Shown here piece after piece: positions 6,222 to 22,856 of a stretch of 64,000 bases of DNA. Position 1 is the first letter of the stretch. Every line of letters begins with the position of its first letter. Position numbers and translations under genes: made by a program. The notes beneath the pieces are model-generated. The model saw nothing but the letters and a program-made list of their open reading frames with translations, was not told the origin of the DNA and did no database searches. Source of the DNA: Myxococcota bacterium (GTDB lineage Bacteria; Myxococcota_A; UBA9160; UBA6930); the NCBI GenBank assembly GCA_965223415.1, contig OZ245002.1, forward strand, positions 2,912,001 through 2,976,000. The letters are read 5' to 3'.

Positions 6222-6299
6222 CCCTACGATAGTGTTGCTTTCGGGGCCGGTTCCGTTTGCTGCGTCGTTCCGGCTCGCGGGGGGATGGAGCGGAGTGAG

Positions 6300-7427: not shown

Positions 7428-8581
7428 ACAACCCCATCGGTGAGCTGCTGCCCGAGGACGAGTCCTTCACCCATCAGGTCACCGAGACCTTCGCCAGCGT
7501 CGCGAGCAGCGATCCCTCGTGGACCGAGAAGGTCTGTGCCATGGCGATGGCCCGGGATGGCAGCCTGCAGATCGGCTTCGGTCTCGGGAAGTACACGAAT
7601 CGCAACGTGATGGACGGGTACGCGGCGCTCTCCCGCGGCAGGGAGCAGCTGACGGTGCGGGCGAGCCGCGCCCTGGCTCCGGAGCCGACCCGGACCGTGG
7701 TCGGACCGATCCGCTACGAGGTGGTCGAGCCGTTCCGCAAGGTGCGCTTCCGGCTCGAGCCGAACGACACGCAACCGATCGCCTTCGACTGGCTCTTCGA
7801 AGCGGTGCTGCCGCCCTTCCCAGAGGACCGCACCCACCTTCGAGCGGGCTACCGGCTCTCGTCGGACCTGGTCCGCTACCACCAGACCGGCGTCGCCTCC
7901 GGTTGGCTCCTCCTCGACGGCGAGCGCACCGAGATCGATCCCGAGGGATGGGTTTCGACCCGCGACCACTCCTGGGGCGTGCGCTACGACGTGGGGACGC
8001 CGCCTGCAGACGTGGAGCCGCGCCCGGGCATTCCGCCGGGCATGGGCTTCATGATGATCTGGTGCCCGGTGCTGATGCAGAAGACGGACGGAACGCGCTA
8101 CGGCCTGCACCTCCACTTCACGTGGATCAAGGGGCACGGCTTCGAGCAGAAGATGACGACGGCGCGGGTCGAGCACGTGGACGGCAGCGAAGAGACGATC
8201 GCCGACATCGAGCCCCACCTGCGCTTCGACGCGGACAACCGGCGGCTCCTCGGCGGGAGCCTCGTGTGCACGATGGCCGACGGCTCCGCCCGGCCCCTCG
8301 AGATTCGCCCCATGGGCGACACCGGCGTGCACCTCGGCGCCGGGCTCTACTTCGGCTTCGACGGCCACCATCACGGCGAGTGGCGCGGCCCGCTCCACGT
8401 CGACGGCGAGCGGATCGCCGACTGCACCACCCCCGAGCAGGCCCGCCGCCTCCACCAGATCCGCGACACCTGTGTCTTCGTCCGCGACCCGGTGGCCGGC
8501 GGCGAAGGCGTCGGCAACTGCCAACCCATCGCCTCCGGCCCCTGGCCCGAGCTCGGCCTCGCCGACGAAGACTGGATGTAG
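7424..8581 (+). CDS. Conserved hypothetical protein (Rv3169-like)
   Basis: YEVVEPF, RYHQTG, RDHSWGVR motifs; ATGA-coupled to the phosphotransferase. Confidence 0.75.
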   Translation: MNNPIGELLPEDESFTHQVTETFASVASSDPSWTEKVCAMAMARDGSLQIGFGLGKYTNRNVMDGYAALSRGREQLTVRASRALAPEPTRTVVGPIRYEVVEPFRKVRFRLEPNDTQPIAFDWLFEAVLPPFPEDRTHLRAGYRLSSDLVRYHQTGVASGWLLLDGERTEIDPEGWVSTRDHSWGVRYDVGTPPADVEPRPGIPPGMGFMMIWCPVLMQKTDGTRYGLHLHFTWIKGHGFEQKMTTARVEHVDGSEETIADIEPHLRFDADNRRLLGGSLVCTMADGSARPLEIRPMGDTGVHLGAGLYFGFDGHHHGEWRGPLHVDGERIADCTTPEQARRLHQIRDTCVFVRDPVAGGEGVGNCQPIASGPWPELGLADEDWM

Positions 8582-8648
8582 AAACGGGGCCAGAGTTAAG
8601 AATGTAGTTCCCATGGGGAACTACATTCTTAACTCTGGCCCCGTTTCT
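8580..8648. repeat. Perfect long palindrome, copy 1 (33-bp arms, 3-nt ATG loop); REP/REPIN-like or bidirectional terminator
   Basis: AGAAACGGGGCCAGAGTTAAGAATGTAGTTCCC (8580-8612) is the exact reverse complement of 8616-8648; lies between convergent stop codons. Confidence 0.95.
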
Positions 8649-9136
8649 TAACCCAGGCTGGCGGGGGTTTCGTTCTTGGGGAGCTTGCCGTGGTCCCAGC
8701 TGATGAAGCGCTGGGGCTTGATGCGGATGAGGACGCGCTTGCCGGCCATACCCTGCTTCACGGCGTCCGGGAGCTGCGAGACGTCGGGCAGCTCGTTGGC
8801 GGTGGCGTCCATCGCCTCGATCATCGTGCGGACGGTGGCGTTGAGATCCTTCGAGAGCTCGGCCTCGCCGTAGATCATCACGCCGCGCAGCTCGTCGTAG
8901 GCGGAGCCGGTCTCGACGAGGAGCGTCACCCGCGGATCGCGCTCGATGTTCTTCACCTTCTGGCTACTCTCGTAGGTGGCGATGCGCACGGTCAGGTCGT
9001 CGTCGATGCCATAGAACATCGGCATCGCGTGGGGAAAGCCGCGCGGCCCGTTGGTCGTGATGATGATCGTGTGCCCGTCCACGAGGAACTCGCGGATCTC
9101 GTCGTCGGTCATCCGGATCTCGTCGCGCCGCGACAT
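8648..9136 (-). CDS. Pyridoxamine 5'-phosphate oxidase-like (PPOX, possibly F420-dependent) protein
   Basis: MTDDEIREFL, PHAMPM, SQKVKNIERDPRVTLLVE, ELRGV, SWDH; GGAGG RBS. Confidence 0.88.
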   Translation of the reverse strand: MSRRDEIRMTDDEIREFLVDGHTIIITTNGPRGFPHAMPMFYGIDDDLTVRIATYESSQKVKNIERDPRVTLLVETGSAYDELRGVMIYGEAELSKDLNATVRTMIEAMDATANELPDVSQLPDAVKQGMAGKRVLIRIKPQRFISWDHGKLPKNETPASLG

Positions 9137-9144
9137 GCTACCTC

Positions 9145-10248
9145 CTATTCCTCGAACTCGGCCTTCGACGGGGAGCGACCGCCGGGGCCACTGTAGGCGA
9201 GGCCGACGCCCGGCGGCTCGGTGAACTCGACCGGCGGGACCGCCGCCAACGCCTTGCGCCAGCCCTCGATGAGCCGGTCTTCGGCCGGGTAGTCGAAGGG
9301 ATCCTGGAGGACGGTCTCCTCCAGGCCGCCAGGCTCCGGGGGGTGCTCGGCGAGCCAGCGCGCCGTTCGCGCCAGCGCCTCCCGGGCGGGCACGACGTCC
9401 CGGTAGCCGAGCTGGTGGCGGATCTTCCCCAGATCGAGGACCCGATGGCTGGTGATCGGCTGCGCGACCAGCGGCCGGGCCGGAGCCGCCAGCTCCCAGG
9501 GCAGCGACACGATCTCGAGCCGCGCCTCCAGCGCGTCGGCCACGATCTCCACCACCTGGCGCAGGCTCAGCACCTCGTCGTCGGCGCAGTTGTAGATCTG
9601 GCCGGCCGCCGCCTCGGGCTGGTCCACGGCCAGCAGCAGCGCGTGGGCCAGGTTCTCCGTGTAGCCGTGGTGGTGCAGGGTGAGGCCGTCCTCGGCCAGG
9701 ATGATGTGTCGCCGGCCGTCGAGGACGCGCCGCACGATGCACCACTCCCGCGGCACGAGCTGGTAGGGCCCGTAGACGTAGGGGTAGCGGAAGTGCGTCG
9801 CCCGCGGCTGGTGGGCGAACACCGCCTCCTCCGTCTTCACGATGCGAAAGCCCTTCTCGTCCTCCTGCGGCTCACGGACGAGGGGGGCGTCCTCCGGTGT
9901 CGGCACCGGCAGCCCGGCGGGCGAGAACAGCCCGGCGTTCATGAACCCGCGATAGGCAGGCACGCCTCCCACCGAGACGAATCGCTCGCAGCGCCCCGCC
10001 ATCAGCTCGGCCAGGCGGCGCAGCCGGCCGTACATGGCGACGCACAGGTCGAAGCTCCGGCCGGAGAGCGCCGCCTCCGTCGCGTCCATGTCGTAGGGAT
10101 CGACGTGGACGTGCTCGATATCCTCCGGGTTGTCCGGGTTCTCGTGCCGGCCCGTGTGGAGGATCGTCACCTCGTGCTCACGCGCCCGCAGGCCGCGTAC
10201 GACCAGGTGCCCGGTGGGCCCGGTGCCGCCGATCACGAGGGAATGCAT
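9145..10248 (-). CDS. NAD-dependent epimerase/dehydratase family protein
   Basis: LVIGGTGPTG, FRYPYVYGP, GQIYNC. Confidence 0.85.
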   Translation of the reverse strand: MHSLVIGGTGPTGHLVVRGLRAREHEVTILHTGRHENPDNPEDIEHVHVDPYDMDATEAALSGRSFDLCVAMYGRLRRLAELMAGRCERFVSVGGVPAYRGFMNAGLFSPAGLPVPTPEDAPLVREPQEDEKGFRIVKTEEAVFAHQPRATHFRYPYVYGPYQLVPREWCIVRRVLDGRRHIILAEDGLTLHHHGYTENLAHALLLAVDQPEAAAGQIYNCADDEVLSLRQVVEIVADALEARLEIVSLPWELAAPARPLVAQPITSHRVLDLGKIRHQLGYRDVVPAREALARTARWLAEHPPEPGGLEETVLQDPFDYPAEDRLIEGWRKALAAVPPVEFTEPPGVGLAYSGPGGRSPSKAEFEE

Positions 10249-10273
10249 GGGCCCGGATGATATCGTGGACGGC

Positions 10274-11233
10274 GTGAAGGCCCTCTTCTTCGACGGCCGC
10301 CGCGCCAGCGTGGAGGATCGCCCGGATCCCGAGCCCGGCGGCGACATGGCGCTCGTGCGGGTACGGCTGGCGGGCGTCTGCAACACGGATCTCGAGATCG
10401 CTCGGGGCTACATGGGCTTCCGGGGCGTGCTCGGCCACGAGTTCGTCGGCGAGGTGGAGGAGGGGCCGGAGCCGTGGCGCGGCCGGCGCGTGGTGGGCGA
10501 GATCAACTTCGCCTGCGGGAGCTGCGAGCGCTGCCGCGCGGGCATGGGCCGCCACTGCGCCACTCGCAAGGTGATGGGCATCCTGGGGGCGGACGGCGCC
10601 TTCGCCGAGCGGGTCGCCGTGCCCGTCGCCAACCTGCACCGGGTGCCGGAAGCGCTGCCGGACGAGAGCGCCGTCTTCACCGAGCCCCTGGCTGCCGCCT
10701 TCGAGATCCTCGAGCAGGTCCGGGTGACCCCCGAGATGCGTTGCGTCGTGCTCGGCGACGGCAAGCTCGGCCTGCTCGTCGCCCAGGTGCTCGCGGGCAC
10801 CGGTGCCCAGGTGAAGGCCGTGGGACGGCACGAGGAGAAGCTCGCGCACCTGGAGAGGGCCGGCATCGAGACCTCCGCGGCGGGTGCCTTCGACGCGGCG
10901 GCGGAGGACGCGGACCTGGTCGTCGAGGCCACCGGCAGCGCTCGCGGCTTCGAGCAGGCCGTCGCCGCCACGCGGCCCCGCGGCACCCTCGTGCTGAAGA
11001 GCACCGTCGCCGAGCGCCCGGAGCTCGATCTCGCGCCGCTGGTGATCGACGAGATCCAGCTGGTGGGCTCGCGCTGCGGCCCCTTCGAACCGGCGCTCGA
11101 CGCCCTGGCCGAGGGCCGCGTCTCCGTCGCGCCCCTCGTGAGCGAGACCTTCCCCCTCGCCCGCGCCCCCCAGGCCCTCTCCCGCGCCGCCGAGCCGGGC
11201 GTGCTGAAGGTCATGATCGACTGCGCAGGCTGA
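10274..11233 (+). CDS. Zinc-dependent MDR alcohol dehydrogenase-like protein
   Basis: GVCNTD, GHEFVG, CGSCERC...HC, GDGKLG, GSRCGPF. Confidence 0.92.
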   Translation: MKALFFDGRRASVEDRPDPEPGGDMALVRVRLAGVCNTDLEIARGYMGFRGVLGHEFVGEVEEGPEPWRGRRVVGEINFACGSCERCRAGMGRHCATRKVMGILGADGAFAERVAVPVANLHRVPEALPDESAVFTEPLAAAFEILEQVRVTPEMRCVVLGDGKLGLLVAQVLAGTGAQVKAVGRHEEKLAHLERAGIETSAAGAFDAAAEDADLVVEATGSARGFEQAVAATRPRGTLVLKSTVAERPELDLAPLVIDEIQLVGSRCGPFEPALDALAEGRVSVAPLVSETFPLARAPQALSRAAEPGVLKVMIDCAG

Positions 11234-11253
11234 CGCCTCGAAGGGAGACGCCC

Positions 11254-11748
11254 ATGGCGGAAACCGCTGCGGCACTCAGCGCCGTACAGATCACGCTGAT
11301 CGAAGAGGCCAGGCTCTTCTTCGTCGCCTCGGCCCATCCACGGCTCGAGCCCGGCCCGGAGGGCCAGGGCCCGGTCAACTGCTCACCCAAGGGAAACGTC
11401 CCCCTCACCGTCCTCGACGCGCGGACCGTGGCCTACCTCGACTACCACGGAAGCGGCAACGAGACGGCGCGCCACGCGCTCGCCGACGGGCCGGTCACCG
11501 TGATGGTCATGTCGCTCGATGCCGAAGACGCGGCGATCCTGCGGCTCTACGGCCGCGCCGAGATCCAGCCGCTCGAATCCTCGCCCCTGGCTGACCGCCT
11601 CCTCCAACGATGCCGGGATCGCAAGGGGCTGCGCCAGGTGGTGTTGCTGCACGTCGAGAGCGCGCGCATGAGCTGCGGCTACGGCGTCCCGGTGTACGAG
11701 TATCGGGGCGACCGCGAGAGGTCCCAGCGCGGCCGCCGCTTCAAGTAG
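11254..11748 (+). CDS. Pyridoxamine 5'-phosphate oxidase family FMN-binding protein
   Basis: FFVASA, VNCSPKG, YLDYHGSGNET, ILRLYG, SCGYGVP. Confidence 0.88.
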   Translation: MAETAAALSAVQITLIEEARLFFVASAHPRLEPGPEGQGPVNCSPKGNVPLTVLDARTVAYLDYHGSGNETARHALADGPVTVMVMSLDAEDAAILRLYGRAEIQPLESSPLADRLLQRCRDRKGLRQVVLLHVESARMSCGYGVPVYEYRGDRERSQRGRRFK

Positions 11749-11751
11749 GGC

Positions 11752-12723
11752 TCACGGCAGCAACAGCACCTTTCCGGTCGTGCGGCGGCCTTCGAGGGCG
11801 CGATGGGCCTCGGCCGCTTCGGCCAGGGGGAAGCGCGCGCCGATGCGCACCTCGAGGCTTCCGGCGGCGACATCGCCGAGGATGGCGCCGGCGCGCAGCT
11901 CGAGCTCCTCCCGGGTGGCGGTGTAGTGGGCAAGGGAGGGCCGCGTCACGAACAGCGATCCACCCAGGTTCAGGCGCTGCAGATCGAAAGGCGCGACCGG
12001 CCCGCTCGACTGCCCGTAGAGCGCCAGGAGGCCGCGAGGACGAAGGCACTGGAGGCTGCCGTCGAAGGTCGCCTGGCCCACGGCGTCGTAGACGACGTCG
12101 CAGCCGCGGCCGCCGGTGAGCTCCGCCACCCGGGGCGCGAAGTCGACCTCGTCGTAGCGGATCACGTGGTCGGCGCCGGCCTTGCGCGCGAGCTGGACCT
12201 TCTCGGCCGCTCCGCAGGTGCCGATCACCGTGGCGCCAGCCTGCTTCAGCAGCTGGATCAGGAGCAGGCCGACGCCACCGGCGGCCGCGTGCACGAGCGC
12301 GGTGTCGCCCTCGGCGGGCGTCCGGCAGCCGTGCACCAGGTAGTGCGCGGTCATTCCCTGGAGCATCGCGGCCCCGGCGGTCTCGTCGTCCACGGCATCG
12401 GGCACCTTCACCAGGTTCGCGGCGGGTGCCACGACGGCCTCGGCGTAGGATCCCGGCGCAGCGGCCCAGGCCACCCGGTCACCGGCCGCGAGACCGTCCA
12501 CCTCCGGTCCCACCGCCTCCACCACGCCGCAGCCCTCGAGGCCCGCCACGAAGGGAGTGGGACGCGGGTAGAGCCCGCTGCGCATGTAGACGTCGATGAA
12601 GTTCACGCCGGCTGCGCGCAGCGCGATTCGAACCTGTCCAACGCCGGGCTCTTCCGGGTCGTGCTCCTGCCACGACAGGACCGAGGCATCTCCCGGCTCG
12701 CGGACGACGATGGCGTGGGGCAT
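11752..12723 (-). CDS. qor: NADPH:quinone oxidoreductase (zeta-crystallin type)
   Basis: GVNFID, AMLQGMTAHYL, HAAAGGVG, YGQSSG, GSLFVTRP, TTGKVLL. Confidence 0.92.
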   Translation of the reverse strand: MPHAIVVREPGDASVLSWQEHDPEEPGVGQVRIALRAAGVNFIDVYMRSGLYPRPTPFVAGLEGCGVVEAVGPEVDGLAAGDRVAWAAAPGSYAEAVVAPAANLVKVPDAVDDETAGAAMLQGMTAHYLVHGCRTPAEGDTALVHAAAGGVGLLLIQLLKQAGATVIGTCGAAEKVQLARKAGADHVIRYDEVDFAPRVAELTGGRGCDVVYDAVGQATFDGSLQCLRPRGLLALYGQSSGPVAPFDLQRLNLGGSLFVTRPSLAHYTATREELELRAGAILGDVAAGSLEVRIGARFPLAEAAEAHRALEGRRTTGKVLLLP

Positions 12724-12759
12724 GGCCGCCATGCTACGCCGTCCGGTGAAGGAGATCCC

Positions 12760-13422
12760 ATGGGCGAGATCGGGCTCTACGAGGCGATGTCGACGCTGCG
12801 GGCCGTGCGCCGGCTGCGACCGGACCCGATCCCCGAGGAGGTCCTGCGGCGGATCCTCGAGGCGGCCACCTGGGCGCCGAGCGGCGGCAACCGGCAGCCG
12901 TGGCGCGTCGTCATCGTGCGGGAGCCCGGGACGAAGCAGCGCCTGGGTGAGTTGTACGCGGAGCGATGGAAGGGCTTCGCCGCCGGCTACGCAGAGAGGC
13001 TCGAGGGCCTTCCCGCGGAGGTCGCCGCTGCCACGAAGAAGATGCTCGGTGCCGGTGACTTCCTGGCCGAGCACTTCCACGAGACGCCGGCCATCTTGAT
13101 CTTCTGCTTCGACCCGCGCGAGATGGCGATCACCGACGCGAGGCTGGATCGCGTCTCCGTGGTGGGCGGGGGCTCGGTGTATCCCGCCGTCCAGAACGCA
13201 TTGCTGGCCTGCCGCGCCGAGGGACTCGGCTGCACGCTCACCACGCTGCTGTGCGCCTGCGAGGGCGAGGTGCGGGAGCTGCTCGGCATCCCCGAAGGCT
13301 GGGGCACCGCCTGTGCCATCCCGATCGGCTACCCGCGCGGCAAGGGCCACGGACCGATCTCGCGGCGTCCGCCGGAGCGCATGGCCTTCGCCGACCGCTG
13401 GGACGCCCCGTTTCCCGGATGA
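12760..13422 (+). CDS. Nitroreductase family protein
   Basis: TLRAVRR, APSGGNRQPW, SVYPAVQNALLACRAEGLG, IPIGYP. Confidence 0.92.
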   Translation: MGEIGLYEAMSTLRAVRRLRPDPIPEEVLRRILEAATWAPSGGNRQPWRVVIVREPGTKQRLGELYAERWKGFAAGYAERLEGLPAEVAAATKKMLGAGDFLAEHFHETPAILIFCFDPREMAITDARLDRVSVVGGGSVYPAVQNALLACRAEGLGCTLTTLLCACEGEVRELLGIPEGWGTACAIPIGYPRGKGHGPISRRPPERMAFADRWDAPFPG

Positions 13423-14570
13423 GTCACGGAACGGTCGCCGCCGCCGAGGCCCTCGTGCCGCTCCTGCGGGAACGCGCCGACGAGATCGAAGCGACCCGGC
13501 ACCTTCCGCGGGATCTCTCCGACCGCTTCGCGCGCGAGGGCTTCTACCGCCTCTACGTGCCCGAGAGCTGCGGTGGTCTCGAGGCGCCGCCCGCCGACGC
13601 CATGCGCACGGTGGAGACCCTGGCGCGGGGCGACGGCTCGGCGGCCTGGTGCGTCTTCATCGGCGCGACCTCCGGCACGGCGCTCGCCCTGCTCCCGGAC
13701 GATGCCGCGAAGGAGATCTTCGTCCGGCCGGAGACGCTCTTGTGCGGCGTGTTCGCACCGCGCGGGACGGCGGATGCCGAGCCCGGCGGCTTCCGGGTGA
13801 ACGGGCGCTGGGCCTGGGGCTCCGGCACCGAGAACGCCGACTGGATCCTGGCCGGCTGCGCCGTCCGCCGCGACGGCGAGACCGAGACCTTCCCGAACGG
13901 CGCCCCGCGCCCCTACATGATGGTCGTGCCCCGCGCGGAGGTGGAGCTCCTCGACACGTGGCACGTCGCCGGCTTGTGCGGGACCGGGAGCACGGACTTC
14001 CAGATCCGCGATGCCTTCGTTCCGGAACGCCACGTCGCCGGCCTCCTGGCGCGCCGTCCCCGGGATCGCCCTCTCTATGCGTTTCCCCAGTTCGGGCTCC
14101 TCGCGATGGGTGTCGCCGCAGTCGCCCTCGGGCTCGCGGCAGCCGCCGTGGAGGAGCTCGTCGCCCTGGCCGACGCGAAGACGCCGAGCATGAGCAGCCG
14201 CACCCTGGCCCGCCGGCCCAGCACCCAGGCCGCCGTCGCCGAGGCGGAGGCCCTGCGCCGCTCGGCCCGGGCCTTCTACTACGAGGCCGTCGACCGCGCC
14301 TGGGATGCGGCCCGACGAGGCGGCCAGCTCGACGTCGAGCATCGGCGCGACCTTCGCCTCGCCACGACCCACGCCACCCACGCGGCGGCCCAGGCGGTGG
14401 ATCGGATGTACCACGTGGCCGGCGGCAGCTCGGTCTATCGCAGCTCCCCGCTGCAACGCATCTTCCGCGACGTCCACGTCGCGACCCAACACATGATGGT
14501 GTCTGCCAGCACGCTGGAGCTGACCGGCCGGCTGCTCCTCGGCCTCGAGACCGACGTGGCCCAGCTCTGA
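13419..14570 (+). CDS. Flavin-dependent monooxygenase, oxygenase subunit (HsaA/ACAD-like)
   Basis: GSAAW, VNGRWAWGSG, TWHVAGLCGTGS, LQRIFRDVHVATQH. Confidence 0.88.
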   Translation: MSHGTVAAAEALVPLLRERADEIEATRHLPRDLSDRFAREGFYRLYVPESCGGLEAPPADAMRTVETLARGDGSAAWCVFIGATSGTALALLPDDAAKEIFVRPETLLCGVFAPRGTADAEPGGFRVNGRWAWGSGTENADWILAGCAVRRDGETETFPNGAPRPYMMVVPRAEVELLDTWHVAGLCGTGSTDFQIRDAFVPERHVAGLLARRPRDRPLYAFPQFGLLAMGVAAVALGLAAAAVEELVALADAKTPSMSSRTLARRPSTQAAVAEAEALRRSARAFYYEAVDRAWDAARRGGQLDVEHRRDLRLATTHATHAAAQAVDRMYHVAGGSSVYRSSPLQRIFRDVHVATQHMMVSASTLELTGRLLLGLETDVAQL

Positions 14571-15496
14571 TGCCCGGCCCCATCCGTGTTGGCCCCCTGG
14601 CCAGCCCCGAGATGCTCACGGCGCCGGTCCCGCGGCGCCGTGAGCTCTTCGCCCGCGTCGAGAGCGCCGGCCTCGATCACGTCTTCGTCGCGGATCACGT
14701 GAGCTTCTTCGTCGGCGCCGGCATGGACGGCCTGGTCCAGGCCGCCATGGCCGCGACCCTCGCTCCGGGTCTCCGCGTCGTCGTCGGCGTCTACCTCCTC
14801 GCGTTGCGCCACCCGGTTCCCGTCGCCCGCCAGATCGCCACCCTGTGCGAAGCCGCCCCGGGCCGCCTGATGCTCGGCGTGGGCGTCGGCGGCGAGGATC
14901 GCCACGAGATCGAGGTCTGCGGGGTCGACCCCCGCACTCGCGGTCGGCGCACCGACGAATGCCTGGCGATCCTCCGCCGCCTGCTCTCGGGCGAGAAGCT
15001 CACCTGGAAGGGCGAGTTCTTCGCCTTCGAGGACGCCTGGATCCTCCCCGCTCCGGACCCGCCGGTACCCCTGGTCGTCGGCGGCCGCAGCGACGCCGCC
15101 GTCCGCCGCGCAGGCCGCCTGGGCGACGGCTGGCTCGGGGTCTGGTGCTCGCCGCGACGCTATGCGGGCGTGCTCGCCGAGATCGCCGCCCACGCCAGGG
15201 AAGCCGGACGCGACGCTCTCCCGAACGAGCACGGTCTCCAGGTGTGGGTCGGCGTCGACCGGGACCGATCCCGCGCCCGCGAGCGTCTCGCGAAGGGAAT
15301 GCAGGATTTCTACCGCATCCCCTTCGATCGCTTCGAGCGCTACAGCCCGTATGGATCGGCGAAAGAGGTGGCCGACGAACTCGCGGGGTACGTGGAGGCG
15401 GGGTGTCGATTCTTCAACGTGATGCCGGTGGCTGAATCTGCGGAGGCGGGGATCGATGCTGTGGCGGAGATCCGGGAGCGGCTGAACCGGGGCTGA
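14570..15496 (+). CDS. LLM class flavin-dependent oxidoreductase
   Basis: DHVFVADH, LRHPVPVARQIATL, GRLMLGVGVG, GGRSDAAVRRAGRLGDGW. Confidence 0.9.
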   Translation: MPGPIRVGPLASPEMLTAPVPRRRELFARVESAGLDHVFVADHVSFFVGAGMDGLVQAAMAATLAPGLRVVVGVYLLALRHPVPVARQIATLCEAAPGRLMLGVGVGGEDRHEIEVCGVDPRTRGRRTDECLAILRRLLSGEKLTWKGEFFAFEDAWILPAPDPPVPLVVGGRSDAAVRRAGRLGDGWLGVWCSPRRYAGVLAEIAAHAREAGRDALPNEHGLQVWVGVDRDRSRARERLAKGMQDFYRIPFDRFERYSPYGSAKEVADELAGYVEAGCRFFNVMPVAESAEAGIDAVAEIRERLNRG

Positions 15497-15514
15497 GAGG
15501 ACGACCGCGACCCG

Positions 15515-16324
15515 CTACACCAGCTTCTCCGGGCTCTCCAGGTACGCCTTGATCCCCGCCAGCGTGATTCCGGCGTAGAGGCCGTCCTCGATGCGCTCGT
15601 CGTAGGAGTACCGGACGTGCATGACGCGCTTGCCGTCGGCGCGCTCGCGGACGCGGCCGAGCATGGCGAAGGCCGGGCAGGTGCCGTGCTCCCAGAGGTG
15701 GTGGTAGCCGGGGTCCATGTCGAGGGAGCCGAGGTTGGCGACGAAGACGGAGGTGAACATCGGATCGCCTTCGATCATCGAACGGGGGAGCAGGCCGAAG
15801 TGGTCGGCCAGGTGGATCAGGCCCATCACGCCCCGGATGAGCAAGGGAGGGAGGAGGCCCAGCGCGAGCTTCATCTCCTTGTCGCTGGCGGTCTTCTCGC
15901 CGCCGCGCTGGCGGGTGAGGCGGTCGAGCACCGCGTCGGTCATCTCGCCGAGTCCCTCGTCCTCGGCGAACTCCCGCTTCACGGTCAGGAGCTTCGCGCC
16001 GTCCACGATCTCCTGCTTGGCGCTGAAGGTGATCCACACGCCCTTGCGCTGCCACAGGCGGCCGCCGCTCGTGAAGCGATTGACGTGGGGACGCATGTGG
16101 AAGTGCATCGACAGGGAGCGGAGGTAGAGGTGGAAGAGCGTCATGCGGCGCTCGGGCGGACGCTTCGCGTTCCGCTCCTCCAGGAAACGCAAGGCAGTGT
16201 CCACTTCGATCTCGCTGTCGAAATAGACCAGCGATTCGTTCCGCCGAGGCGAGACGAAGGGCATGAAGCGACGCATGGTCGAGAGATCGCGCACCAGCGT
16301 GGCGTCGGCACGGCGTCCGAACAT
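15515..16324 (-). CDS. Stand-alone 2-oxoacid dehydrogenase E2-like (CAT-fold) acyltransferase domain
   Basis: P-x-VNRF, FVANLGS, YHHLWEHGT, DERIEDG in place of DHRxxDG; no lipoyl domain. Confidence 0.8.
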   Translation of the reverse strand: MFGRRADATLVRDLSTMRRFMPFVSPRRNESLVYFDSEIEVDTALRFLEERNAKRPPERRMTLFHLYLRSLSMHFHMRPHVNRFTSGGRLWQRKGVWITFSAKQEIVDGAKLLTVKREFAEDEGLGEMTDAVLDRLTRQRGGEKTASDKEMKLALGLLPPLLIRGVMGLIHLADHFGLLPRSMIEGDPMFTSVFVANLGSLDMDPGYHHLWEHGTCPAFAMLGRVRERADGKRVMHVRYSYDERIEDGLYAGITLAGIKAYLESPEKLV

Positions 16325-16518
16325 GAGGTCCTCCCGTTCTCCAGAACATAGAGCCGATGGGCCGGGCGGTCGCGGCGGCTGCCTTCCGGGCCTACCCCGG
16401 GTCGGCGGGAGATGGAGCCGGAGCTGCTCGTCGAGGGGCTGCCCTTCGACATCGCCTGGATCGCAGGCCGGTGCGCCGACGTCAACGTGGGCGAAGCGAA
16501 GCGCTAGCCGGGAGCGCC

Positions 16519-17427
16519 TCAGTCGTGGAGGTCGGGCTCCATGAAGAGCCAGCCGAGGTCCGGCACCTCCTCGCGGAGACGGCGCTCGAGGGCGTTGATG
16601 TGGGCGATCGCCTCGTTCAGGGGCAGACCGGGCGTCATACGCAGCTTCGCCGCCAGCATGATCTGCGGCCCGACCTGCAGGGTGATCACGTTGAAGATCT
16701 CGATGATGTCCGGATCGCGTTCGATCTCCCGGGCGATGACGGCCGCGATCTCGGGATCCGCGGAGCGACCGATCAGCAGCTTCGCGATTCGGAAGGCGAC
16801 GAACAGCGCGACGATCACGAGGAGCCCCCCGATCGCCATCGAGCCATAGGCGTCCCAGATCCCGTCGCCGGTGACGGTCGCGATGAGGACGAAGACGAAG
16901 GCGATCGCCAGGCCCGAGAGCGCCGCCAGGTCCTCGCCGAAGACCACGACCAGCTCGGAGTTGCGCGACTGGTTGAGCCAGCTCCAGAGGCTGCGGCCGT
17001 GGCGCACCTTCTCGACCTCGACCATGCAGCCTCGCATGCTGATCCCCTCGAGCACGATCGAGAAGGCGAGCACGAGGAGGGCCACCCAGGAGTTCTCGAT
17101 CGGTCCGGTCTCGTGGAGCTTGTGGTAGCCCTCGTAGAGGGAGAAGAGGCCGCCGATGCTGAAGAGCAGCATCGCGACGATGAAGCTCCAGAAGTAGGTC
17201 ACCTTGCCGTAGCCGAGCGGGTGCTCCGCATCCGCCGGCTTCTGGGCGCGCTTCAGACCGAGCAGCAGCAGGAGCTGGTTGCCCGAGTCGGCGTAGGAGT
17301 GGATCGCCTCGGCCGTCATGCTCGAAGAGCCCGTGGAGACGGCGGCGGCCGTCTTCGCAATGGCGATGCCCGCGTTCGCGAAGAACGCGTAGAGGATGGC
17401 CTTGATCGGATTGCTGCCACCTGCCAT
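16519..17427 (-). CDS. Cation diffusion facilitator (CDF) transporter
   Basis: AEAIHSYADSGNQ, HPLGYGK, EDLAAL, FMEPD. Confidence 0.92.
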   Translation of the reverse strand: MAGGSNPIKAILYAFFANAGIAIAKTAAAVSTGSSSMTAEAIHSYADSGNQLLLLLGLKRAQKPADAEHPLGYGKVTYFWSFIVAMLLFSIGGLFSLYEGYHKLHETGPIENSWVALLVLAFSIVLEGISMRGCMVEVEKVRHGRSLWSWLNQSRNSELVVVFGEDLAALSGLAIAFVFVLIATVTGDGIWDAYGSMAIGGLLVIVALFVAFRIAKLLIGRSADPEIAAVIAREIERDPDIIEIFNVITLQVGPQIMLAAKLRMTPGLPLNEAIAHINALERRLREEVPDLGWLFMEPDLHD

Positions 17428-17438
17428 GGGGCGGAAGT

Positions 17439-18362
17439 CTACGCCTTCTTCCGCTTCTTCGCGGGCAAGCGGACCGCGTCGTCCCACGCGGGAGATTCGA
17501 GCACCTCGACCATGTAGTCGATGAACGCACGCACCTTGGGGGAGAGGTGACGGTTGGCGGGATAGACCGCCCAGAAGCCGGCCTCGCGCTCGCTCGTGTC
17601 GTCCACGAGGAGCGGGACGAGCCGGCCGGCGCGAAGCTGGTCGGCGACCAGGAACACCGGGAGGTAGACGATCCCCGCGCCCGCCAGGGCCGCCTGGAGC
17701 AGCGCGTCGCCGTTGTCGATATTGAGTCGGCCGTGGGTCGTGACCTTGCGGCCGCCGTTGAAGTTCCACGTGTCCGGGGGCGGGGCGTAGCCCAGACACT
17801 CGTGGTCCTCGAGGTCTTCCGGCGCCCGCGGCGTCCCGTGGTCCTTCAGGTAGGTCGGCGAGGCGCACACGACGGCATGGACCGAGGCGAGGCGCCGCGC
17901 GACCAGGCTCGAATCCCGCAGCGTGCCGACCCGCAGGGCGAGGTCGAACTTCTCGCGCACCAGGTCGATCATCCGATCGGTGAGATCCAGGTCGATCCGC
18001 ACCTCCGGGTGGCGCTCCAGGAAGCCGGGCAGGAGGGGCGCGAGCTGGCGCTGACCGAAGGACATCGGTGCGGCGATGCGGATCTCGCCGCGGGGCTCCG
18101 CCTGGAGCTCGCTCACCGAGAGCTCGGCGAGCTCCGCCTCCTCGACCACCCGCTGGCAACGGGCGTGGAAGGCCTCGCCGATCTCGGTGAGGCTCATGGT
18201 CCGCGTGGTGCGCCGCAGGAGCTGGGCGCCGAGACGCTTCTCGAGGGCCGCGATCTCCTTGCTCACGGCGGCCTTCGATCGGCCCAGGTGCTTGGCGGCC
18301 GCCGTGAAGCTGCCCCGGGCCACCACCTCGTGGAAGACGAGCATGGCGGCGGTGTTCTGCAT
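17439..18362 (-). CDS. LysR family transcriptional regulator (CrgA-like)
   Basis: GSFTAAA...AVSKEIAALE...LLRRTTR, FDLALR, LSPKVRAFID. Confidence 0.95.
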   Translation of the reverse strand: MQNTAAMLVFHEVVARGSFTAAAKHLGRSKAAVSKEIAALEKRLGAQLLRRTTRTMSLTEIGEAFHARCQRVVEEAELAELSVSELQAEPRGEIRIAAPMSFGQRQLAPLLPGFLERHPEVRIDLDLTDRMIDLVREKFDLALRVGTLRDSSLVARRLASVHAVVCASPTYLKDHGTPRAPEDLEDHECLGYAPPPDTWNFNGGRKVTTHGRLNIDNGDALLQAALAGAGIVYLPVFLVADQLRAGRLVPLLVDDTSEREAGFWAVYPANRHLSPKVRAFIDYMVEVLESPAWDDAVRLPAKKRKKA

Positions 18363-18381
18363 TCGGGCTTCGTTTCCCACT

Positions 18382-18416
18382 GGAAACAATCATATCGTGA
18401 TGACCCTATTGTCTCC
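18382..18416. promoter_or_regulatory. Probable LysR binding region in a divergent promoter
   Basis: AT-rich imperfect inverted repeat GGAAACAAT...ATTGTCTCC just upstream of the LysR gene. Confidence 0.5.
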
Positions 18417-18461
18417 ATAGCTGCACCCACCGATGCTGCTCTCATCGCGCCCCGGAGACCC

Positions 18462-18857
18462 ATGATGTTCCGATCCCTTCGAGCCCCGTTCACGATCCTG
18501 GCGCTCACCGCCCTTCTGGCCGCGCCGAGCACGGGCCAGAGCCTGGCCACCCCCCGCGCCGCTCTCGTGGTGCTGCCGGCGGTCGCCGGCCAGCGCGCCG
18601 CGGTGCCCGCCGACCAGCGGGTCGTCTTCCGCAACGACGCGGAGCAGACCACCCGGGTCGTCTTCCACCGCCGGGACGCGAAGCGCGTTCGCTGCGATGG
18701 GGCCGTGGGGGTGAGCCGCTCCCGGGCGGGCCAGTACACGGTGCAGCCCGGAGCCGAGCTGCTCTGCTCCCTCGAGCCCGGCGGCTACCGCTACGAGACC
18801 CTGACGTCGGTGCACGGCGCGATCGAGCGCGAGAGGGCGCGCATCGACGCACGCTGA
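18462..18857 (+). CDS. Hypothetical exported protein, possibly cupredoxin-like beta-sandwich
   Basis: Signal peptide, RVVFRND, LEPGGYRY; divergent from LysR. Confidence 0.6.
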   Translation: MMFRSLRAPFTILALTALLAAPSTGQSLATPRAALVVLPAVAGQRAAVPADQRVVFRNDAEQTTRVVFHRRDAKRVRCDGAVGVSRSRAGQYTVQPGAELLCSLEPGGYRYETLTSVHGAIERERARIDAR

Positions 18858-18862
18858 CCCGA

Positions 18863-19543
18863 CTACTGGAGCAGCGGAGCCAGGGCCTGCCAGACCGTCT
18901 CCGCGACGATCTGCTGCCCCTCCGCAGTCGGGTGGATGCCGTCGGCCTGGTTCAACGCCGGGTCGGCGGCCACCCCCTCCAGCAGGAAGGGGATGCGGAC
19001 GGCGCCCTGGGACCTGGCGAACTCCTCGAAGGTCGCCTCGAATGCGGCGCCGTAGTCCGGGCCCAGGTTCGGCGCTGCGCGCATCCCCGCCACGATCAGC
19101 CGGGCCCCGGGATGGGCGGTGCGGGTCTTGTCGGCGATCCCGCGCAGGTTGGCCCGCAGGGCCGGAACGTCCAGACCGCGGAGCATGTCGTTGGCCCCGA
19201 GCTCGATCACGAGCACGGCCAGCGGGAGGCGCAGCAGCCAGTCGAGCCGGCGCAGGCCGCCCGCCGAGGTATCGCCGCTGACGCCCGCGTTCACCACCCG
19301 ATAGGCGAGGCCGGCCCGGTCGATGCGCTCCTGGAGGAGGGCGGGGTAGGCCTCCTCCGCCGGCAGGCCGTAGCCGGCGGTAAGGCTGGTTCCGAGGAAC
19401 GCGATCACCGGTCGCGAATCCGCGCGGGCCTGCGGCTCGGACGAGGGCGCAGGCGCACCGCGAGGAGCCCCGTCGCCACAGGCGAGAAGCCATGCGACGA
19501 GCCACGCCAGCCAGTAACGTTGCCTGCGCGTTGCCCCGTGCAT
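18863..19543 (-). CDS. tesA: GDSL/SGNH arylesterase (TesA-like lipoprotein)
   Basis: FLGTSLTAGYG, NAGVSGDTS, ELGAND, DGIHP; LLAC lipobox. Confidence 0.92.
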   Translation of the reverse strand: MHGATRRQRYWLAWLVAWLLACGDGAPRGAPAPSSEPQARADSRPVIAFLGTSLTAGYGLPAEEAYPALLQERIDRAGLAYRVVNAGVSGDTSAGGLRRLDWLLRLPLAVLVIELGANDMLRGLDVPALRANLRGIADKTRTAHPGARLIVAGMRAAPNLGPDYGAAFEATFEEFARSQGAVRIPFLLEGVAADPALNQADGIHPTAEGQQIVAETVWQALAPLLQ

Positions 19544-20231
19544 GCCGATGATCGTCGCCAGGAATCTTGCCCAGCGCTACCCGCGCGCTGACGGCTCGCC
19601 GTTGACCGTGCTCGAAGACGTCGACCTCGACGTGGACGAGGGCGAGGTAGTGGTCGTCCTCGGCCCCTCCGGAAGTGGCAAGACGACCTTGCTCGGCCTG
19701 CTGGCCGGGCTCGACCTGCCGAGCGAGGGAAGCGTCACCCTTGCCGGCATCGACCAGGGTGCGCTCAGCGAGGACGAACGCGCCAGCTTCCGCGCAGAGC
19801 ACGTCGGCTTCGTGTTCCAGAACTTCCAGCTGATCCCGACGCTCACGGCCCACGAGAACGTGCGGGTGCCGCTCGAGCTCCTGCCGGAGGCGCGGGCGCC
19901 GGGTGCGCCGGAGGCCGAAGCCCGCGCCGACGCCCTGCTCGCGCGGGTCGGCCTGGCGGAGCGCACCGACCACTTCCCGAGCCAGCTCTCCGGCGGCGAG
20001 CAGCAGCGGGTCGGGCTGGCCCGCGCCTTCGCCGCCGAGCCGGCGGTGCTGTTCGCCGACGAGCCCACGGGCAACCTCGACCGGGCCACCGGAGAGCGCG
20101 TGGCGGACCTCCTGTTCGAGCTGAACCGGGAGGCCGGCACGACCCTCGTCATCGTCACCCACGACATGGCGCTGGCCGAACGCGCCGGCCGCGTCGTGCG
20201 TCTCGAGGCGGGGCGGGTCCAGGCCCCGTGA
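19542..20231 (+). CDS. ybbA: ABC transporter ATP-binding protein (YbbA-like)
   Basis: GPSGSGKT, LSGGEQQR, ADEPTGNLD; divergent from tesA. Confidence 0.92.
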   Translation: MPMIVARNLAQRYPRADGSPLTVLEDVDLDVDEGEVVVVLGPSGSGKTTLLGLLAGLDLPSEGSVTLAGIDQGALSEDERASFRAEHVGFVFQNFQLIPTLTAHENVRVPLELLPEARAPGAPEAEARADALLARVGLAERTDHFPSQLSGGEQQRVGLARAFAAEPAVLFADEPTGNLDRATGERVADLLFELNREAGTTLVIVTHDMALAERAGRVVRLEAGRVQAP

Positions 20232-22774
20232 GCCGGCGCTTCGTCCCGGCGATGACCGCTCGCGAGCTGCGCGGCTCCGGGCGACGGCTCGCCCTGTACG
20301 GCGCCTGCATGGCGCTCGGCATCGCGGCCCTGGTGGCCCTCTCGGGGCTGCGCGTCTCGATCGCCGACGCGGTGGCGGGACGCGCACGGGAGCTGATGGG
20401 CGCGGATCTGATGCTCCGCGCCCGCACGCCCTTCTCCGAGCCGGTCGAGGCGGAGATCGCCCGGCTCACGCAGGACGGCGGCGCCGTCTCGCGGGTGACG
20501 AGCTTCGCGTCCATGGCGCTGGCCGAACGCTCGGGGCGCAGCCGGCTGGTGCACGTCCAGGCGCCGGAGCCGGGCTTTCCCTTCCACGGCGAGGTGCGGA
20601 CGGATCCGCCGGACCAGTGGTCGCGTCTGGCCGAGGGCGCCCATGCGGTGGTGGACCCGGCCGTGCTCATCCAGCTCGACGCGGAGGTGGGCGACCTGCT
20701 GCGGGTCGGCCGTGAGCGGTTCACGATCCTGGGCGTGGCGACGCGGGCGCCGGGGACCTTCGGCCTGCGCGCGTCGGTGGCGCCGCGGGTGTTCATCCCG
20801 GCGAGCCGGCTCGAGGCGACGGGCCTGGTCCAGCAGGGCTCGATGGTCGAGTACCTGGCCTACCTGCGCGCCGGGGGAGACCTGGACGGCTGGGCTCGGG
20901 AGAAGCGCTCGTTCCTGGAAGCCGAGCGGACCACGGCCCGAACCGTGAGCCGCTACCAGGACGACCTCTCCGAGAGCTTCGGTGCGCTCACCCGCTACCT
21001 CGGGCTGGTCGGCCTGACGGCGCTCTTGCTAGGCGGCGTGGGTGTGGCGGCGGGCATCCGTGTGTTCGTGCAGGAGAAGCTCGACACCGCGGCGGTGCTT
21101 CGCGCACTGGGAGCACGCTCCGGCGAGGTAATGCGCGTCTACCTGGGCCAGGCGGCGGTGCTGGGCCTGGCCGGCGGCGCCCTCGGCGTGGCGCTGGGCT
21201 ACGGCGTGCAGGCGCTCCTGCCGAGGGTGCTGGCGGGCTTCCTGCCCGTGGCGCTTCCCTTCCGGCCGGATCCGTGGGTCGGCGCGCTCGGCTTCGCCCT
21301 GGGACTCGGTGTGGCGGTGGTGTTCGCGGCGTGGCCGCTCCTCGAGCTGCGGGAGGTGGCGCCCCTGCGGGCCCTGCGTCGGGACGTGGAGCCCCGCGCC
21401 GCGGGCGCGATGCCCACGCCGTGGGTGCCCGTGCTGCTCGCGGCGGCGCTGCTGGGCGCTGCCTTGTGGCAGGCGCCGACGCCGAAGGTCGGCCTGGCCT
21501 TCGGCGCGGGGCTGTTGGCGGCGCTCGGCGTCCTGGCCGGGGCGGCGCGGGGGCTGATCGGCGCGCTTCGTCGCCACGTTCCCCGCAGCGCGCCCTATTG
21601 GCTGCGGCAGGGCGTCGCGAACCTCTTCCGCCCCAAGAACCAGACCCTGCCGACGACACTGACCATCGGCTTCGGCCTCTTCCTCGTCGCGAGCGTGCAG
21701 CTCCTGCAGACGAACCTGCTCTCGGAGCTCCGGGACGACGCGGCACCGGACCGCCCGAACCTGGTGCTCTTCGACGTGCAGCGGGACCAGCGCGACGCGG
21801 TCGTCGGACTGCTGGAGGAGCGCGGCGTGCGCCTCGACGACCGCGCGCCGATGGTGGCGGCCCGCATCGCGGGCATCGACGGGCGCACGGCGGAGACGGT
21901 GCTCGCCGAGCGCGGCCGCGAGGCACCTCGGAACGAGGAAGAGCGCGACGCCCGCTGGGCCCTTCGCCGTGAGTACCGCCTCACCTATCGCGCCGACCTC
22001 AAGGAGACGGAAGAGGTGGTGGAGGGCCGCTGGTGGAACGAGGCGGCGAGCGGGGACGCTCCGACGCCGGTCTCCATCGAGCGCGAGCTAGCGGAGACCC
22101 TGGGCGTCTCCGTCGGCGACCGGGTGCAGTGGGACGTGCAGGGCGTGCCGATCGAGAGCGTCGTGACCAGCCTGCGCGAGGTGGACTGGGGCCGCTTCGC
22201 GACGAACTTCTTCGTCGTGTTCCCGCCGGGCGTGCTCGAGGAGGCGCCCCAGAGCATCGTGCTCATCGGCCACCTGCCGGGCGAGGAGGCCCGGGCGGTC
22301 CTCCAGCGGGATCTCGTCGGGCGCTTCCCGAACCTGAGCGTCCTCGACGCGACGCAGCTGCTGCGCGCCGTCGACACGATCGTGCGTCAGGTGAGCCTGG
22401 CGGTGCGCTTCATGGCCGCTTTCACCCTGGCGACGGGCCTGGTGGTGCTGCTCGCCGCCGCGAGCACCGCGCGCTTCCAGCGCGTGCGCGAAGCACTGTT
22501 GCTGCGCACCCTGGGCGGCCGCGCCCGAACCCTGCGGCGCATCCTCACCACCGAGTCCTTCCTGCTGGGTGCCCTGGCCGCGACCGTCGGCCTGGGCCTG
22601 GCGGGCATGGCCGCCTGGGCCCTCGTCATCTTCCTCTTCGAGCAGCCCTTCCGGCTGCCGGTGACGGACCTGGCCGCCCTCTGGCTCGCGACGGTCCTCC
22701 TCGCCACCGCCCTCGGCTGGAGCCACGCCCGCCCCGTCCTGCGCAGCCCACCCCTCGCCGGCCTCCGCGAATGA
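20228..22774 (+). CDS. ybbP: ABC transporter permease (YbbP-like, duplicated FtsX domains)
   Basis: 848 aa, two FtsX-like halves, NLVLFDVQ, REVDW...NFFVVF; tesA-ybbA-ybbP synteny. Confidence 0.9.
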   Translation: MSRRFVPAMTARELRGSGRRLALYGACMALGIAALVALSGLRVSIADAVAGRARELMGADLMLRARTPFSEPVEAEIARLTQDGGAVSRVTSFASMALAERSGRSRLVHVQAPEPGFPFHGEVRTDPPDQWSRLAEGAHAVVDPAVLIQLDAEVGDLLRVGRERFTILGVATRAPGTFGLRASVAPRVFIPASRLEATGLVQQGSMVEYLAYLRAGGDLDGWAREKRSFLEAERTTARTVSRYQDDLSESFGALTRYLGLVGLTALLLGGVGVAAGIRVFVQEKLDTAAVLRALGARSGEVMRVYLGQAAVLGLAGGALGVALGYGVQALLPRVLAGFLPVALPFRPDPWVGALGFALGLGVAVVFAAWPLLELREVAPLRALRRDVEPRAAGAMPTPWVPVLLAAALLGAALWQAPTPKVGLAFGAGLLAALGVLAGAARGLIGALRRHVPRSAPYWLRQGVANLFRPKNQTLPTTLTIGFGLFLVASVQLLQTNLLSELRDDAAPDRPNLVLFDVQRDQRDAVVGLLEERGVRLDDRAPMVAARIAGIDGRTAETVLAERGREAPRNEEERDARWALRREYRLTYRADLKETEEVVEGRWWNEAASGDAPTPVSIERELAETLGVSVGDRVQWDVQGVPIESVVTSLREVDWGRFATNFFVVFPPGVLEEAPQSIVLIGHLPGEEARAVLQRDLVGRFPNLSVLDATQLLRAVDTIVRQVSLAVRFMAAFTLATGLVVLLAAASTARFQRVREALLLRTLGGRARTLRRILTTESFLLGALAATVGLGLAGMAAWALVIFLFEQPFRLPVTDLAALWLATVLLATALGWSHARPVLRSPPLAGLRE

Positions 22775-22856
22775 AGAAGCGGGGCCAGAGTTAAGAATTC
22801 AGTTACCCCCCGAAGGGGGGTAACTGAATTCTTAACTCTGGCCCCGCTTCTTCATT
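22770..22856. repeat. Perfect long palindrome, copy 2 (42-bp arms, GAA loop); same family as 8580-8648
   Basis: AATGAAGAAGCGGGGCCAGAGTTAAGAATTCAGTTACCCCCC (22770-22811) is the exact reverse complement of 22815-22856; lies between convergent stop codons. Confidence 0.95.

Follow-up and report, generated by a model that had tools for sequence, protein, structure and literature searches.

Mirrored hairpin doublets at gene ends of a Myxococcota genome and the TIRYT-type transposase genes that carry the same inverted repeats

We have analyzed a window of 64,000 nt (C1:2912001-2976000) of the genome of a Myxococcota bacterium (G000, a 5.83-Mb single contig, C1), in which two long perfect hairpins lie between convergent genes. 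It is probable that each hairpin consists of two terminal inverted repeats (TIRs), placed head to head, of a single-copy tyrosine transposase gene of the TIRYT type located elsewhere in the genome, and that the enzyme both spread the doublets and maintains the identity of their arms: it would nick close to the GGGG ends, and one arm would be recopied from the other. The arms are associated with the transposase gene, occur in many copies at the 3' ends of genes, mirror each other's variants beyond chance, have changed together with the gene in a congener and are flanked by a strand-polarised base skew.

Two perfect hairpins between convergent genes

The features of both hairpins are the following (window coordinates).

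8577..8583, + strand: outer heptamer TGTAGAA of copy 1, which includes the TAG stop (8579-8581) of the Rv3169-family gene 7424-8581
8580..8612, + strand: left arm of copy 1, a family A TIR, with the GGGG core at 8586
8596..8602 and 8603..8609, + strand: inner heptamers of copy 1, TTAAGAA and TGTAGTT (the latter a private variant, mirrored)
8613..8615, no strand: loop of copy 1, ATG
8616..8648, - strand: right arm of copy 1, exact reverse complement of the left arm
8648..8650, - strand: TAA stop of the PPOX-class oxidoreductase gene 8648-9136, within the right-arm outer heptamer TTAAGAA
22770..22811, + strand: left arm of copy 2, with the GGGG core at 22781 and heptamers at 22791-22797 and 22798-22804
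22772..22778, + strand: outer heptamer TGAAGAA of copy 2, which includes the TGA stop (22772-22774) of the FtsX-like permease gene 20228-22774
22812..22814, no strand: loop of copy 2, GAA
22815..22856, - strand: right arm of copy 2, exact reverse complement of the left arm
22857..22859, - strand: TGA stop of the OmpA-domain gene 22857-24209 (called by our own gene finder), abutting the right arm of copy 2

A first-pass annotation, made from the letters of the window, had pointed out both hairpins, and our coordinates, the shared core, the arms of 33 bp (copy 1) and 42 bp (copy 2, 100% complementary) and the mirrored differences between the copies agree with it. It had also described them as AT-rich and as filling the gaps between convergent genes, and so they are. 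Their GC content is 48% and 49% respectively, compared with 71% for the window, and each spans the whole gap of a convergent gene pair, coding for an Rv3169-family protein and a PPOX-class oxidoreductase at copy 1 and for an FtsX/YbbP-like permease and an OmpA-domain protein at copy 2, with all four flanking stop codons touching or overlapping the arms. The folding z-scores were -14.8 and -16.9, and none of 200 shuffles folded as well. On both strands of both hairpins a U-rich tract follows the stem. A search of Rfam gave no matches within the window. Two relatives without the element have the same gene end as the Rv3169-family gene at copy 1. Besides the hairpins, the window has a single arm of another family (D, see below) at 6234-6267 (+), between the genes 4986-6221 and 6285-7427.

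Four dispersed families placed at gene ends

The arm of the window hairpins, which we call family A, occurs 92 times in the genome in 48 clusters, of which 44 are head-to-head doublets and four are single arms; the window hairpins are two of these 44 doublets, and the dispersed, non-autonomous family proposed in the first-pass annotation thus exists. Three sibling families share the GGGG-N-C start: B with 44 doublets, C with 38, and D with nine doublets, 66 singles and 11 tandem pairs. The core sequence is GGGGCCAG in family A, GGGGACGT in B and C, and GGGGCCGG in D. Each arm contains three heptamers TnnAG(A/T)(A/T) in which variation is found mainly at the two free positions, and the GT/TC difference between the window copies falls on one of them. 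One whole A doublet is present four times and two C doublets have a 31-nt spacer in common.

The statistics of family A use 43 doublets (C1:4548967, with one decayed arm, was removed by the filter), and the gene calls come from our own codon-model finder rather than from a standard annotator. Twenty-two of these doublets lie between convergent genes, 16 between co-directional genes and none between divergent genes, while five were called inside genes. The enrichment between convergent genes that had been expected for such elements is real: convergent pairs hold 22 of the 38 intergenic doublets and make up 16% of the junctions overall (p 7e-9). The position relative to the neighboring gene is also narrow. 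Among the 60 arms that face a gene end, the stop codon is found 5–7 nt outside the GGGG in 38, in all three frames, at 10–12 nt in nine, as an inner TAA in seven and further off in six.

Several variant forms were seen in the same genome. Twelve C doublets have a fixed length of 77–79 nt with variable, non-palindromic spacers of 31–33 nt (C1:712476, 717554, 830680, 1370630, 1464733, 1537617, 1927169, 2228001, 3997513, 4537692, 5165826 and 5543855). A search of the long spacers within this genome gave no convincing match except with spacers of the same family. Collapsed hairpins that retain only outer parts of A, B or D arms are found at C1:1511176-1511220, 1748001-1748070, 1761089-1761129 and 3814314-3814346, two of them located where the congener G005 has A arms. 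At C1:1111195-1111234 a long C run is directly followed by a long G run. An identical multi-copy sequence that matches the D core weakly, probably an insertion sequence, is present at C1:241833, 425510, 2411473, 2772115, 3023244, 3071336 and other positions.

Each family brackets its own transposase gene

There are eight matches to Y1 transposases in the genome and none in the window, as the first-pass annotation had said of the latter. The HUH tyrosine transposase flanked by the motif, for which it had suggested looking, is present 1.2 Mb from the window: two single A arms bracket an intact Y1/HUH gene at C1:1714162-1715028, coding for 288 aa. These arms are 31 nt long, inverted and differ by two mismatches. 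Families B, C and D each bracket a Y1 gene of their own, one gene per family. The other four Y1 matches lack these arms and are one IS200-like transposase with short inverted ends (L001, C1:5490161-5490679) and three related Y1 proteins of another type (L005, L006 and L008, at C1:4075689, 5825888 and 13756), around which flanking inverted repeats were not found; L006 and L008 appear degraded.

The A protein matches PF01797 (Y1_Tnp) with 32.3 bits, above the cut-off of 23, and the NCBIfam RAYT model NF047646 with 61 bits, below its cut-off of 80. The HUH motif (H60-x-H62) and the tyrosine Y119 are invariant in 13 aligned homologues. In a structural model of the protein (pLDDT 86) the first half aligns with TnpA-REP 4er8 (Z 15.9, rmsd 3.4, 158 aligned residues) and the tail, residues 207–287, with DnaA domain IV 1j1v (Z 11.1, rmsd 2.2, 81 aligned). 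The Pfam match of the A protein to Bac_DnaA_C is weak (E 0.022, below the cut-off), and in the B protein HTH_23 is above the cut-off. Only 15 relatives of the enzyme were found in named genomes, all of them distant. The family A gene with its arms is a TIRtron, and its product a TIRYT, i.e., a tyrosine transposase whose gene is flanked by long inverted repeats that are not repetitive extragenic palindromes (REPs) (Di Nocera, De Gregorio and Rocco, 2013, PMC3733652).

Mirrored variants in the two arms of a doublet

In the core of the 43 A doublets we found 43 mirrored variants and 16 that affected one arm only, when shuffled pairs gave a mean of 8.9 mirrored variants and a maximum of 18 in 2000 trials; the cores were identical in 39 of the doublets. 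The numbers of mirrored and one-armed core variants were 24 and 13 in B, 40 and 14 in C, and 16 and two in D. The copying of whole subfamily units could raise these numbers artificially, and for this reason we made a second count, restricted to variants private to a single doublet; in family A all five were mirrored. Symmetry was found in 89 of 104 doublets with loops of at most 7 nt compared with 14 of 32 with longer loops. In G000 the mirroring has a sharp outer edge, with 11 mirrored and no discordant differences at positions -3 to -1 and none mirrored and 20 discordant at positions -7 to -4.

The congener G005 shows mirroring that goes beyond the arms. There, partner flanks, as paired by mapping onto G000, match outwards over a mean of 13.3 nt in nine A pairs and 21.4 nt in five D pairs; flanks that are not partners match over about 3 nt. 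One of the pairs has the end of a host gene within its match. Because this mirroring extends into flanks that are specific to the site, it argues for copying in place, and it is likely that the arms were equalised in situ by copying one arm onto the other, the templated copying that the first-pass annotation had listed among the possible causes of the symmetry. Symmetry as such is not new, since the arms of REPINs have also been reported to be mostly identical.

The private inner variant of copy 1 (8600-8609) echoes the host sequence ATGTAG that ends the left gene (8572-8581). A copying between outer and inner heptamers would fit copy 1; we discarded it as a general process because in family A as a whole there were seven cases out of 16, when the null gave 5.4 (p 0.19). 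In G005 partial tandem copies of the outer end of the arm, of about 12–20 nt, stack outwards and rewrite gene tails (loci L062, L064, L065, L071, L253, L255, L264 and L266).

Orthologous genes, empty sites and reused sites in relatives

The family A pattern was found in two of 40 relatives, with 39 arms in the congener G005 and one in G009. A search in a metagenome collection, which may leave out near kin, gave no matches. G005 carries an orthologous A gene (61%) between the same two neighbors. The sequence TTCAGTT of G000 is replaced by TTCACTT at the ends of this gene and in the majority of the G005 arms. It also has an orthologue of the D gene and 45 D arms, and no D match was found in four other congeners.

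More widely, our own script was run on 26 TIRYT-like loci of relatives and detected flanking inverted repeats at 24. Doublets of the GGGGAC type are present in 15 of the 16 relatives with a TIRYT match (the exception being G005) and in five of the 24 without. AGAA heptamers occur in the TIRs of all five proteins whose recognition helix contains S-Q-A; one protein without S-Q-A also has AGAA, so that this link is a lead only. Two TIRYT genes are flanked by whole doublets, L085 (G016) on both sides and L075 (G004) upstream. A doublet pattern for the whole phylum was abandoned as too loose, its control matching about equally often.

Empty orthologous sites, which the first-pass annotation had proposed to look for, were found. 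The readable orthologues of the genes that flank the window hairpins are without A element (one lies 15 nt from a contig end), and clean empty sites exist in G002, where 1.70 Mb on 120 of about 280 contigs could be compared. Target-site duplications, a feature of MITEs, were not seen, in relatives that are about 70–84% identical and so too distant to fix the junctions. Small hairpins with a GGGG core follow homologues of window genes at L025 (G002), L039 (G003) and L040 (G004), and in G002 others are found at two sites that hold C or D elements in G000.

Other sites are shared. We could map 51 of 60 flanks of G005 onto G000 (nine remained unmapped), and 15 of 20 D flanks and six of 31 A flanks fell on sites occupied in G000; for comparison, G000 has an element at 7% of its gene ends and at 16% of its convergent junctions, and paired flanks are not independent. 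At the shared sites the arm version differs by lineage, and one site holds an A element in G000 and a D element in G005. The sites of the elements are therefore old or reused, and the sequence in them has been updated.

A strand-polarised skew in the flanking genes

The genes that end at the doublets have an unusual composition at their fourfold degenerate sites. At codons 5–25 from the end, 169 genes abutting doublets have 80% C and 14% G compared with 51% and 41% in 3497 control genes. The skew fades by about 100 codons (~300 nt) and runs the other way in 30 genes that have their start, and not their end, at a doublet. Gene by gene, the median fourfold C/(C+G) is 0.81 in 171 genes abutting doublets and 0.56 in 1017 convergent controls. 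The skew is present in each of the four genes next to the window hairpins:

8370..8570, + strand: C-rich and G-poor flank into copy 1, 90% C and 10% G at codons 5–70 from the end (n=39), 61% and 39% further in
8660..8860, - strand: C-rich flank into copy 1, fourfold sites 76% C and 21% G (n=33)
22560..22760, + strand: C-rich flank into copy 2, 65% C and 31% G (n=51), 48% and 45% further in
22870..23070, - strand: C-rich flank into copy 2, 67% C and 24% G (n=42)

In 111 of 136 doublets the left flank has a negative and the right flank a positive skew, which is the polarity of a replication origin, and the skew is independent of the direction of transcription. Single arms show the same skew on their outer side (-0.22 for 66 D singles and -0.20 for 15 B singles). 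Relative to G002, 35 genes show 172 G-to-C and 77 C-to-G changes, compared with 2951 and 2916 in controls, G002 itself being slightly C-rich at the compared gene ends (0.60 against 0.53). In its turn, G005 shows the skew at sites that are empty in G000, where G was kept at 142 of 358 positions near the element and 1307 of 2425 far from it. The skew is largely lineage-specific. Cytosine deamination was considered, as counts over all sites hinted at it (136 G>A and 72 C>T), and was rejected at fourfold sites (45/40 near and 209/228 far, p 0.41). Among the literature matches listed we found no published description of such a skew.

Proposed mechanism and alternative explanations

In the TIRYT explanation favored here, the DnaA-domain-IV-like tail would bind the three heptamers of each arm and the HUH domain would nick near the GGGG. 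Whole doublets would be copied to new sites as units, and copies would survive only where reading frames are spared, that is, at stop codons. Repeated nick-primed resynthesis would then equalise the arms and leave the skew in the flanks.

A number of results weigh against this explanation. The private variants are one-armed in B (five of five) and in C (two of two), so that equalisation is not constant, and in D five of eight are mirrored and three are not. The mirroring in G000 ends near position -3 and the excess beyond this point is weak (p 0.03), and the pairings in G005 were inferred by mapping broken contigs onto G000. The family C gene (L007, C1:3235897-3236672) is frameshifted between the HUH motif and the catalytic tyrosine, and 38 C doublets persist despite this. 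G004 has an A orthologue with the same downstream neighbor but with other TIRs and no A pattern; its recognition helix is different. Three of the 24 relatives without a TIRYT match have at least two doublets, one of them 18, and neither are related genomes independent samples nor are most of those used here unfragmented. Three more distant relatives, with 15 doublets among them, show little or no skew (negative in 19 of 29 flanks), and the repeat families concerned mostly lack the outer heptamer. Nicking, binding and movement are all inferred. Finally, host template switching can make any quasi-palindrome perfect without a transposase (PMC7202029).

This last process is the main rival for the symmetry of the arms. 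The TIRYT would merely have seeded the doublets, host template switching would equalise the arms, and the skew would come from stalling of forks or repair at the hairpin, an account that we consider unlikely. In Escherichia coli, template switching is known to make inverted repeats perfect (PMC7202029), the tighter symmetry of doublets with short loops is what it would give, and family C is largely symmetric though its gene is broken. Single arms form no hairpin, yet those of D and B are skewed; copying within a site would not by itself give arm versions proper to each lineage or swaps between families, and the sharp outer edge of mirroring in G000 also speaks against it. A role as bidirectional terminators or stabilisers of mRNA 3' ends, with compensatory changes produced by selection for pairing, is decidedly improbable as the explanation of the doublets. 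Their distribution (22 of 43 A doublets convergent, none divergent), the U-rich tracts on both strands and the fact that lineages share or reuse sites (21 of the 51 G005 flanks that mapped, compared with 7% of gene ends) would agree with it, and a similar co-option has been proposed for the REPINs of Pseudomonas (PMC3337134). However, a stem of 33–42 bp needs no perfect pairing, the private variants of A lack one-armed intermediates, a simple terminator scan called neither hairpin, and the skew does not follow transcription. A terminator role may nonetheless explain why copies are retained.

Two more accounts have very little left in their favor. That the doublets are scars which joined genes after a rearrangement or an adjacent deletion is largely refuted and very improbable. 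It drew on the flanking genes of both window sites not being neighbors in the congeners examined, on two shorter gene tails and on the extra DNA found in G002 between the genes at six of 45 element junctions compared with 30 of 1111 controls (p 0.002). Nevertheless, the convergent doublet junctions are broken in G002 in eight of 14 cases against 105 of 141 controls (120 of ~280 contigs), and clean empty sites exist. A fold-back artefact of the assembly, which perfect symmetry would evoke and which the first-pass annotation had raised against its own proposal, is refuted for copy 1 and scarcely credible in general. An exact 63-nt contig over the loop of copy 1 (8583-8645) was recovered in three of four public runs, from two samples, at a depth close to that of the flanks in runs X1 and X2; this read check covers copy 1, and the runs all come from one study that is possibly the source of the assembly itself. 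Besides, independent genomes carry mirrored doublets of their own, and the arms are placed at stop codons and match the TIRs that flank the genes.

The TIRYT explanation can be extended in a way that we offer tentatively, as possible and rather doubtful. Group 1 RAYTs (TIRYTs) could be domesticated initiators, in which an HUH nickase fused to a DnaA-domain-IV-like reader of heptamers would start short bursts of nick-primed synthesis at more than 100 hairpins of one chromosome. Each doublet would function as a small bidirectional origin, rewriting its own arms and changing in place as the enzyme evolves; it could be swapped for another family at the same site, and it would bias mutation about 300 nt into the neighboring genes with the polarity of an origin. 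If the skew were indeed made by the enzyme, a selfish repeat would be steering the silent-site composition and the C-termini of some 170 host genes. These elements bear on the spread of REP-type repeats and on the reasons for which hosts retain the transposases. They provide natural swaps of specificity (four tails, four heptamers) and two measurable outputs, the equalisation of the arms and, in host genes, a mutation bias that is local and strand-specific, and the mechanism is for that reason directly testable.

Comparison with known systems

Like the TIRtrons described by Di Nocera and coworkers (PMC3733652), the system found here consists of a Y1 gene with long inverted arms, a dispersed family of TIRs rich in dimers, a core with a run of G and several such genes per genome. 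In that work the TIRs form moderately abundant families, many of them as dimers, and a GGGGWSAS motif is common to some TIRs only; the core of family A, GGGGCCAG, differs from it. In the passages of that paper available to us, perfect hairpin doublets whose private variants are mirrored are not described, nor is a gene that co-evolves with its repeats at a fixed site, nor a skew in the flanks. The term TIRYT is used in only two works of the library searched, and the literature matches listed contained nothing relevant from later work on TIRYTs.

Quentin et al. (2018, PMC6006769) placed most TIRYTs in the TnpA-Y1 subclass 2.1, which corresponds to Group 1 of the RAYTs, and the proteins of this subclass are probably TIRYTs. 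The enzyme of family A has the same layout, a Y1 core followed by a C-terminal domain of the Bac_DnaA_C/HTH_23/HTH_28 kind (PMC6006769; Bertels et al., 2017, PMC5581495). Its assignment to this subclass relies on that layout and on the TIRs, and the putative DNA-binding tail would point to Group 1. As far as the excerpts of their paper go, Quentin et al. reported no REP-like sequences near subclass 2.1 genes and doubted that the tail recognizes the TIRs; in contrast, each gene here has 9–44 doublets whose arms contain repeated heptamers.

With REPINs the doublets share that an inverted pair makes one hairpin (44 of 48 clusters) and is mostly extragenic (38 of 43). As in the REPIN-RAYT system, the spacer is variable, there are compensatory changes and the arms are mostly symmetric (PMC3116915, PMC3337134, 10.1101/2021.07.10.451892, 10.1101/2022.05.22.493013), and a single-copy transposase flanked by its own repeat is vertically inherited, at the same site in G005. 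The first-pass annotation had suggested a REP/REPIN-like element, and this part did not hold. A REP is a short imperfect palindrome that folds alone and ends in a GTAG or CGTC tag, and the arms of family A have neither property: on their own they reach -0.1 and -1.3 kcal/mol (folding z-scores of +1.0 and +0.5), and the consensus lacks GTAG and CGTC, the GTAG letters of copy 1 being the host stop context plus the private variant. Since the single arm does not fold, family A is not a REP family, and what it matches is the TIR of a TIRYT as described in PMC3733652. Unlike the transposases of REPIN-RAYT systems, the A enzyme has a putative DNA-binding tail. The available passages of the REPIN papers of Bertels and Rainey state REPINs for Group 2 and 3 RAYTs only, and the largest RAYT group has been described as being without them; here four gene-repeat pairs in a single genome behave as REPINs and RAYTs do.

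Quasi-palindrome template switching in E. coli, in which one arm of an imperfect inverted repeat is copied onto the other until it becomes perfect, differs from the TIR doublets in being a host process at any inverted repeat, one that gives neither a dispersed family nor a cognate gene (PMC7202029, from the sections available). The elements described here are thus of a kind already known, the TIR repeats of TIRtrons, which has barely been studied and which behaves like REPIN-RAYT systems without being a REP family. Set against the available passages on TIRtrons, what is new for TIR repeats is that they form perfect self-mirroring doublets, co-evolve vertically with their gene and are accompanied by a skew in the flanking genes.

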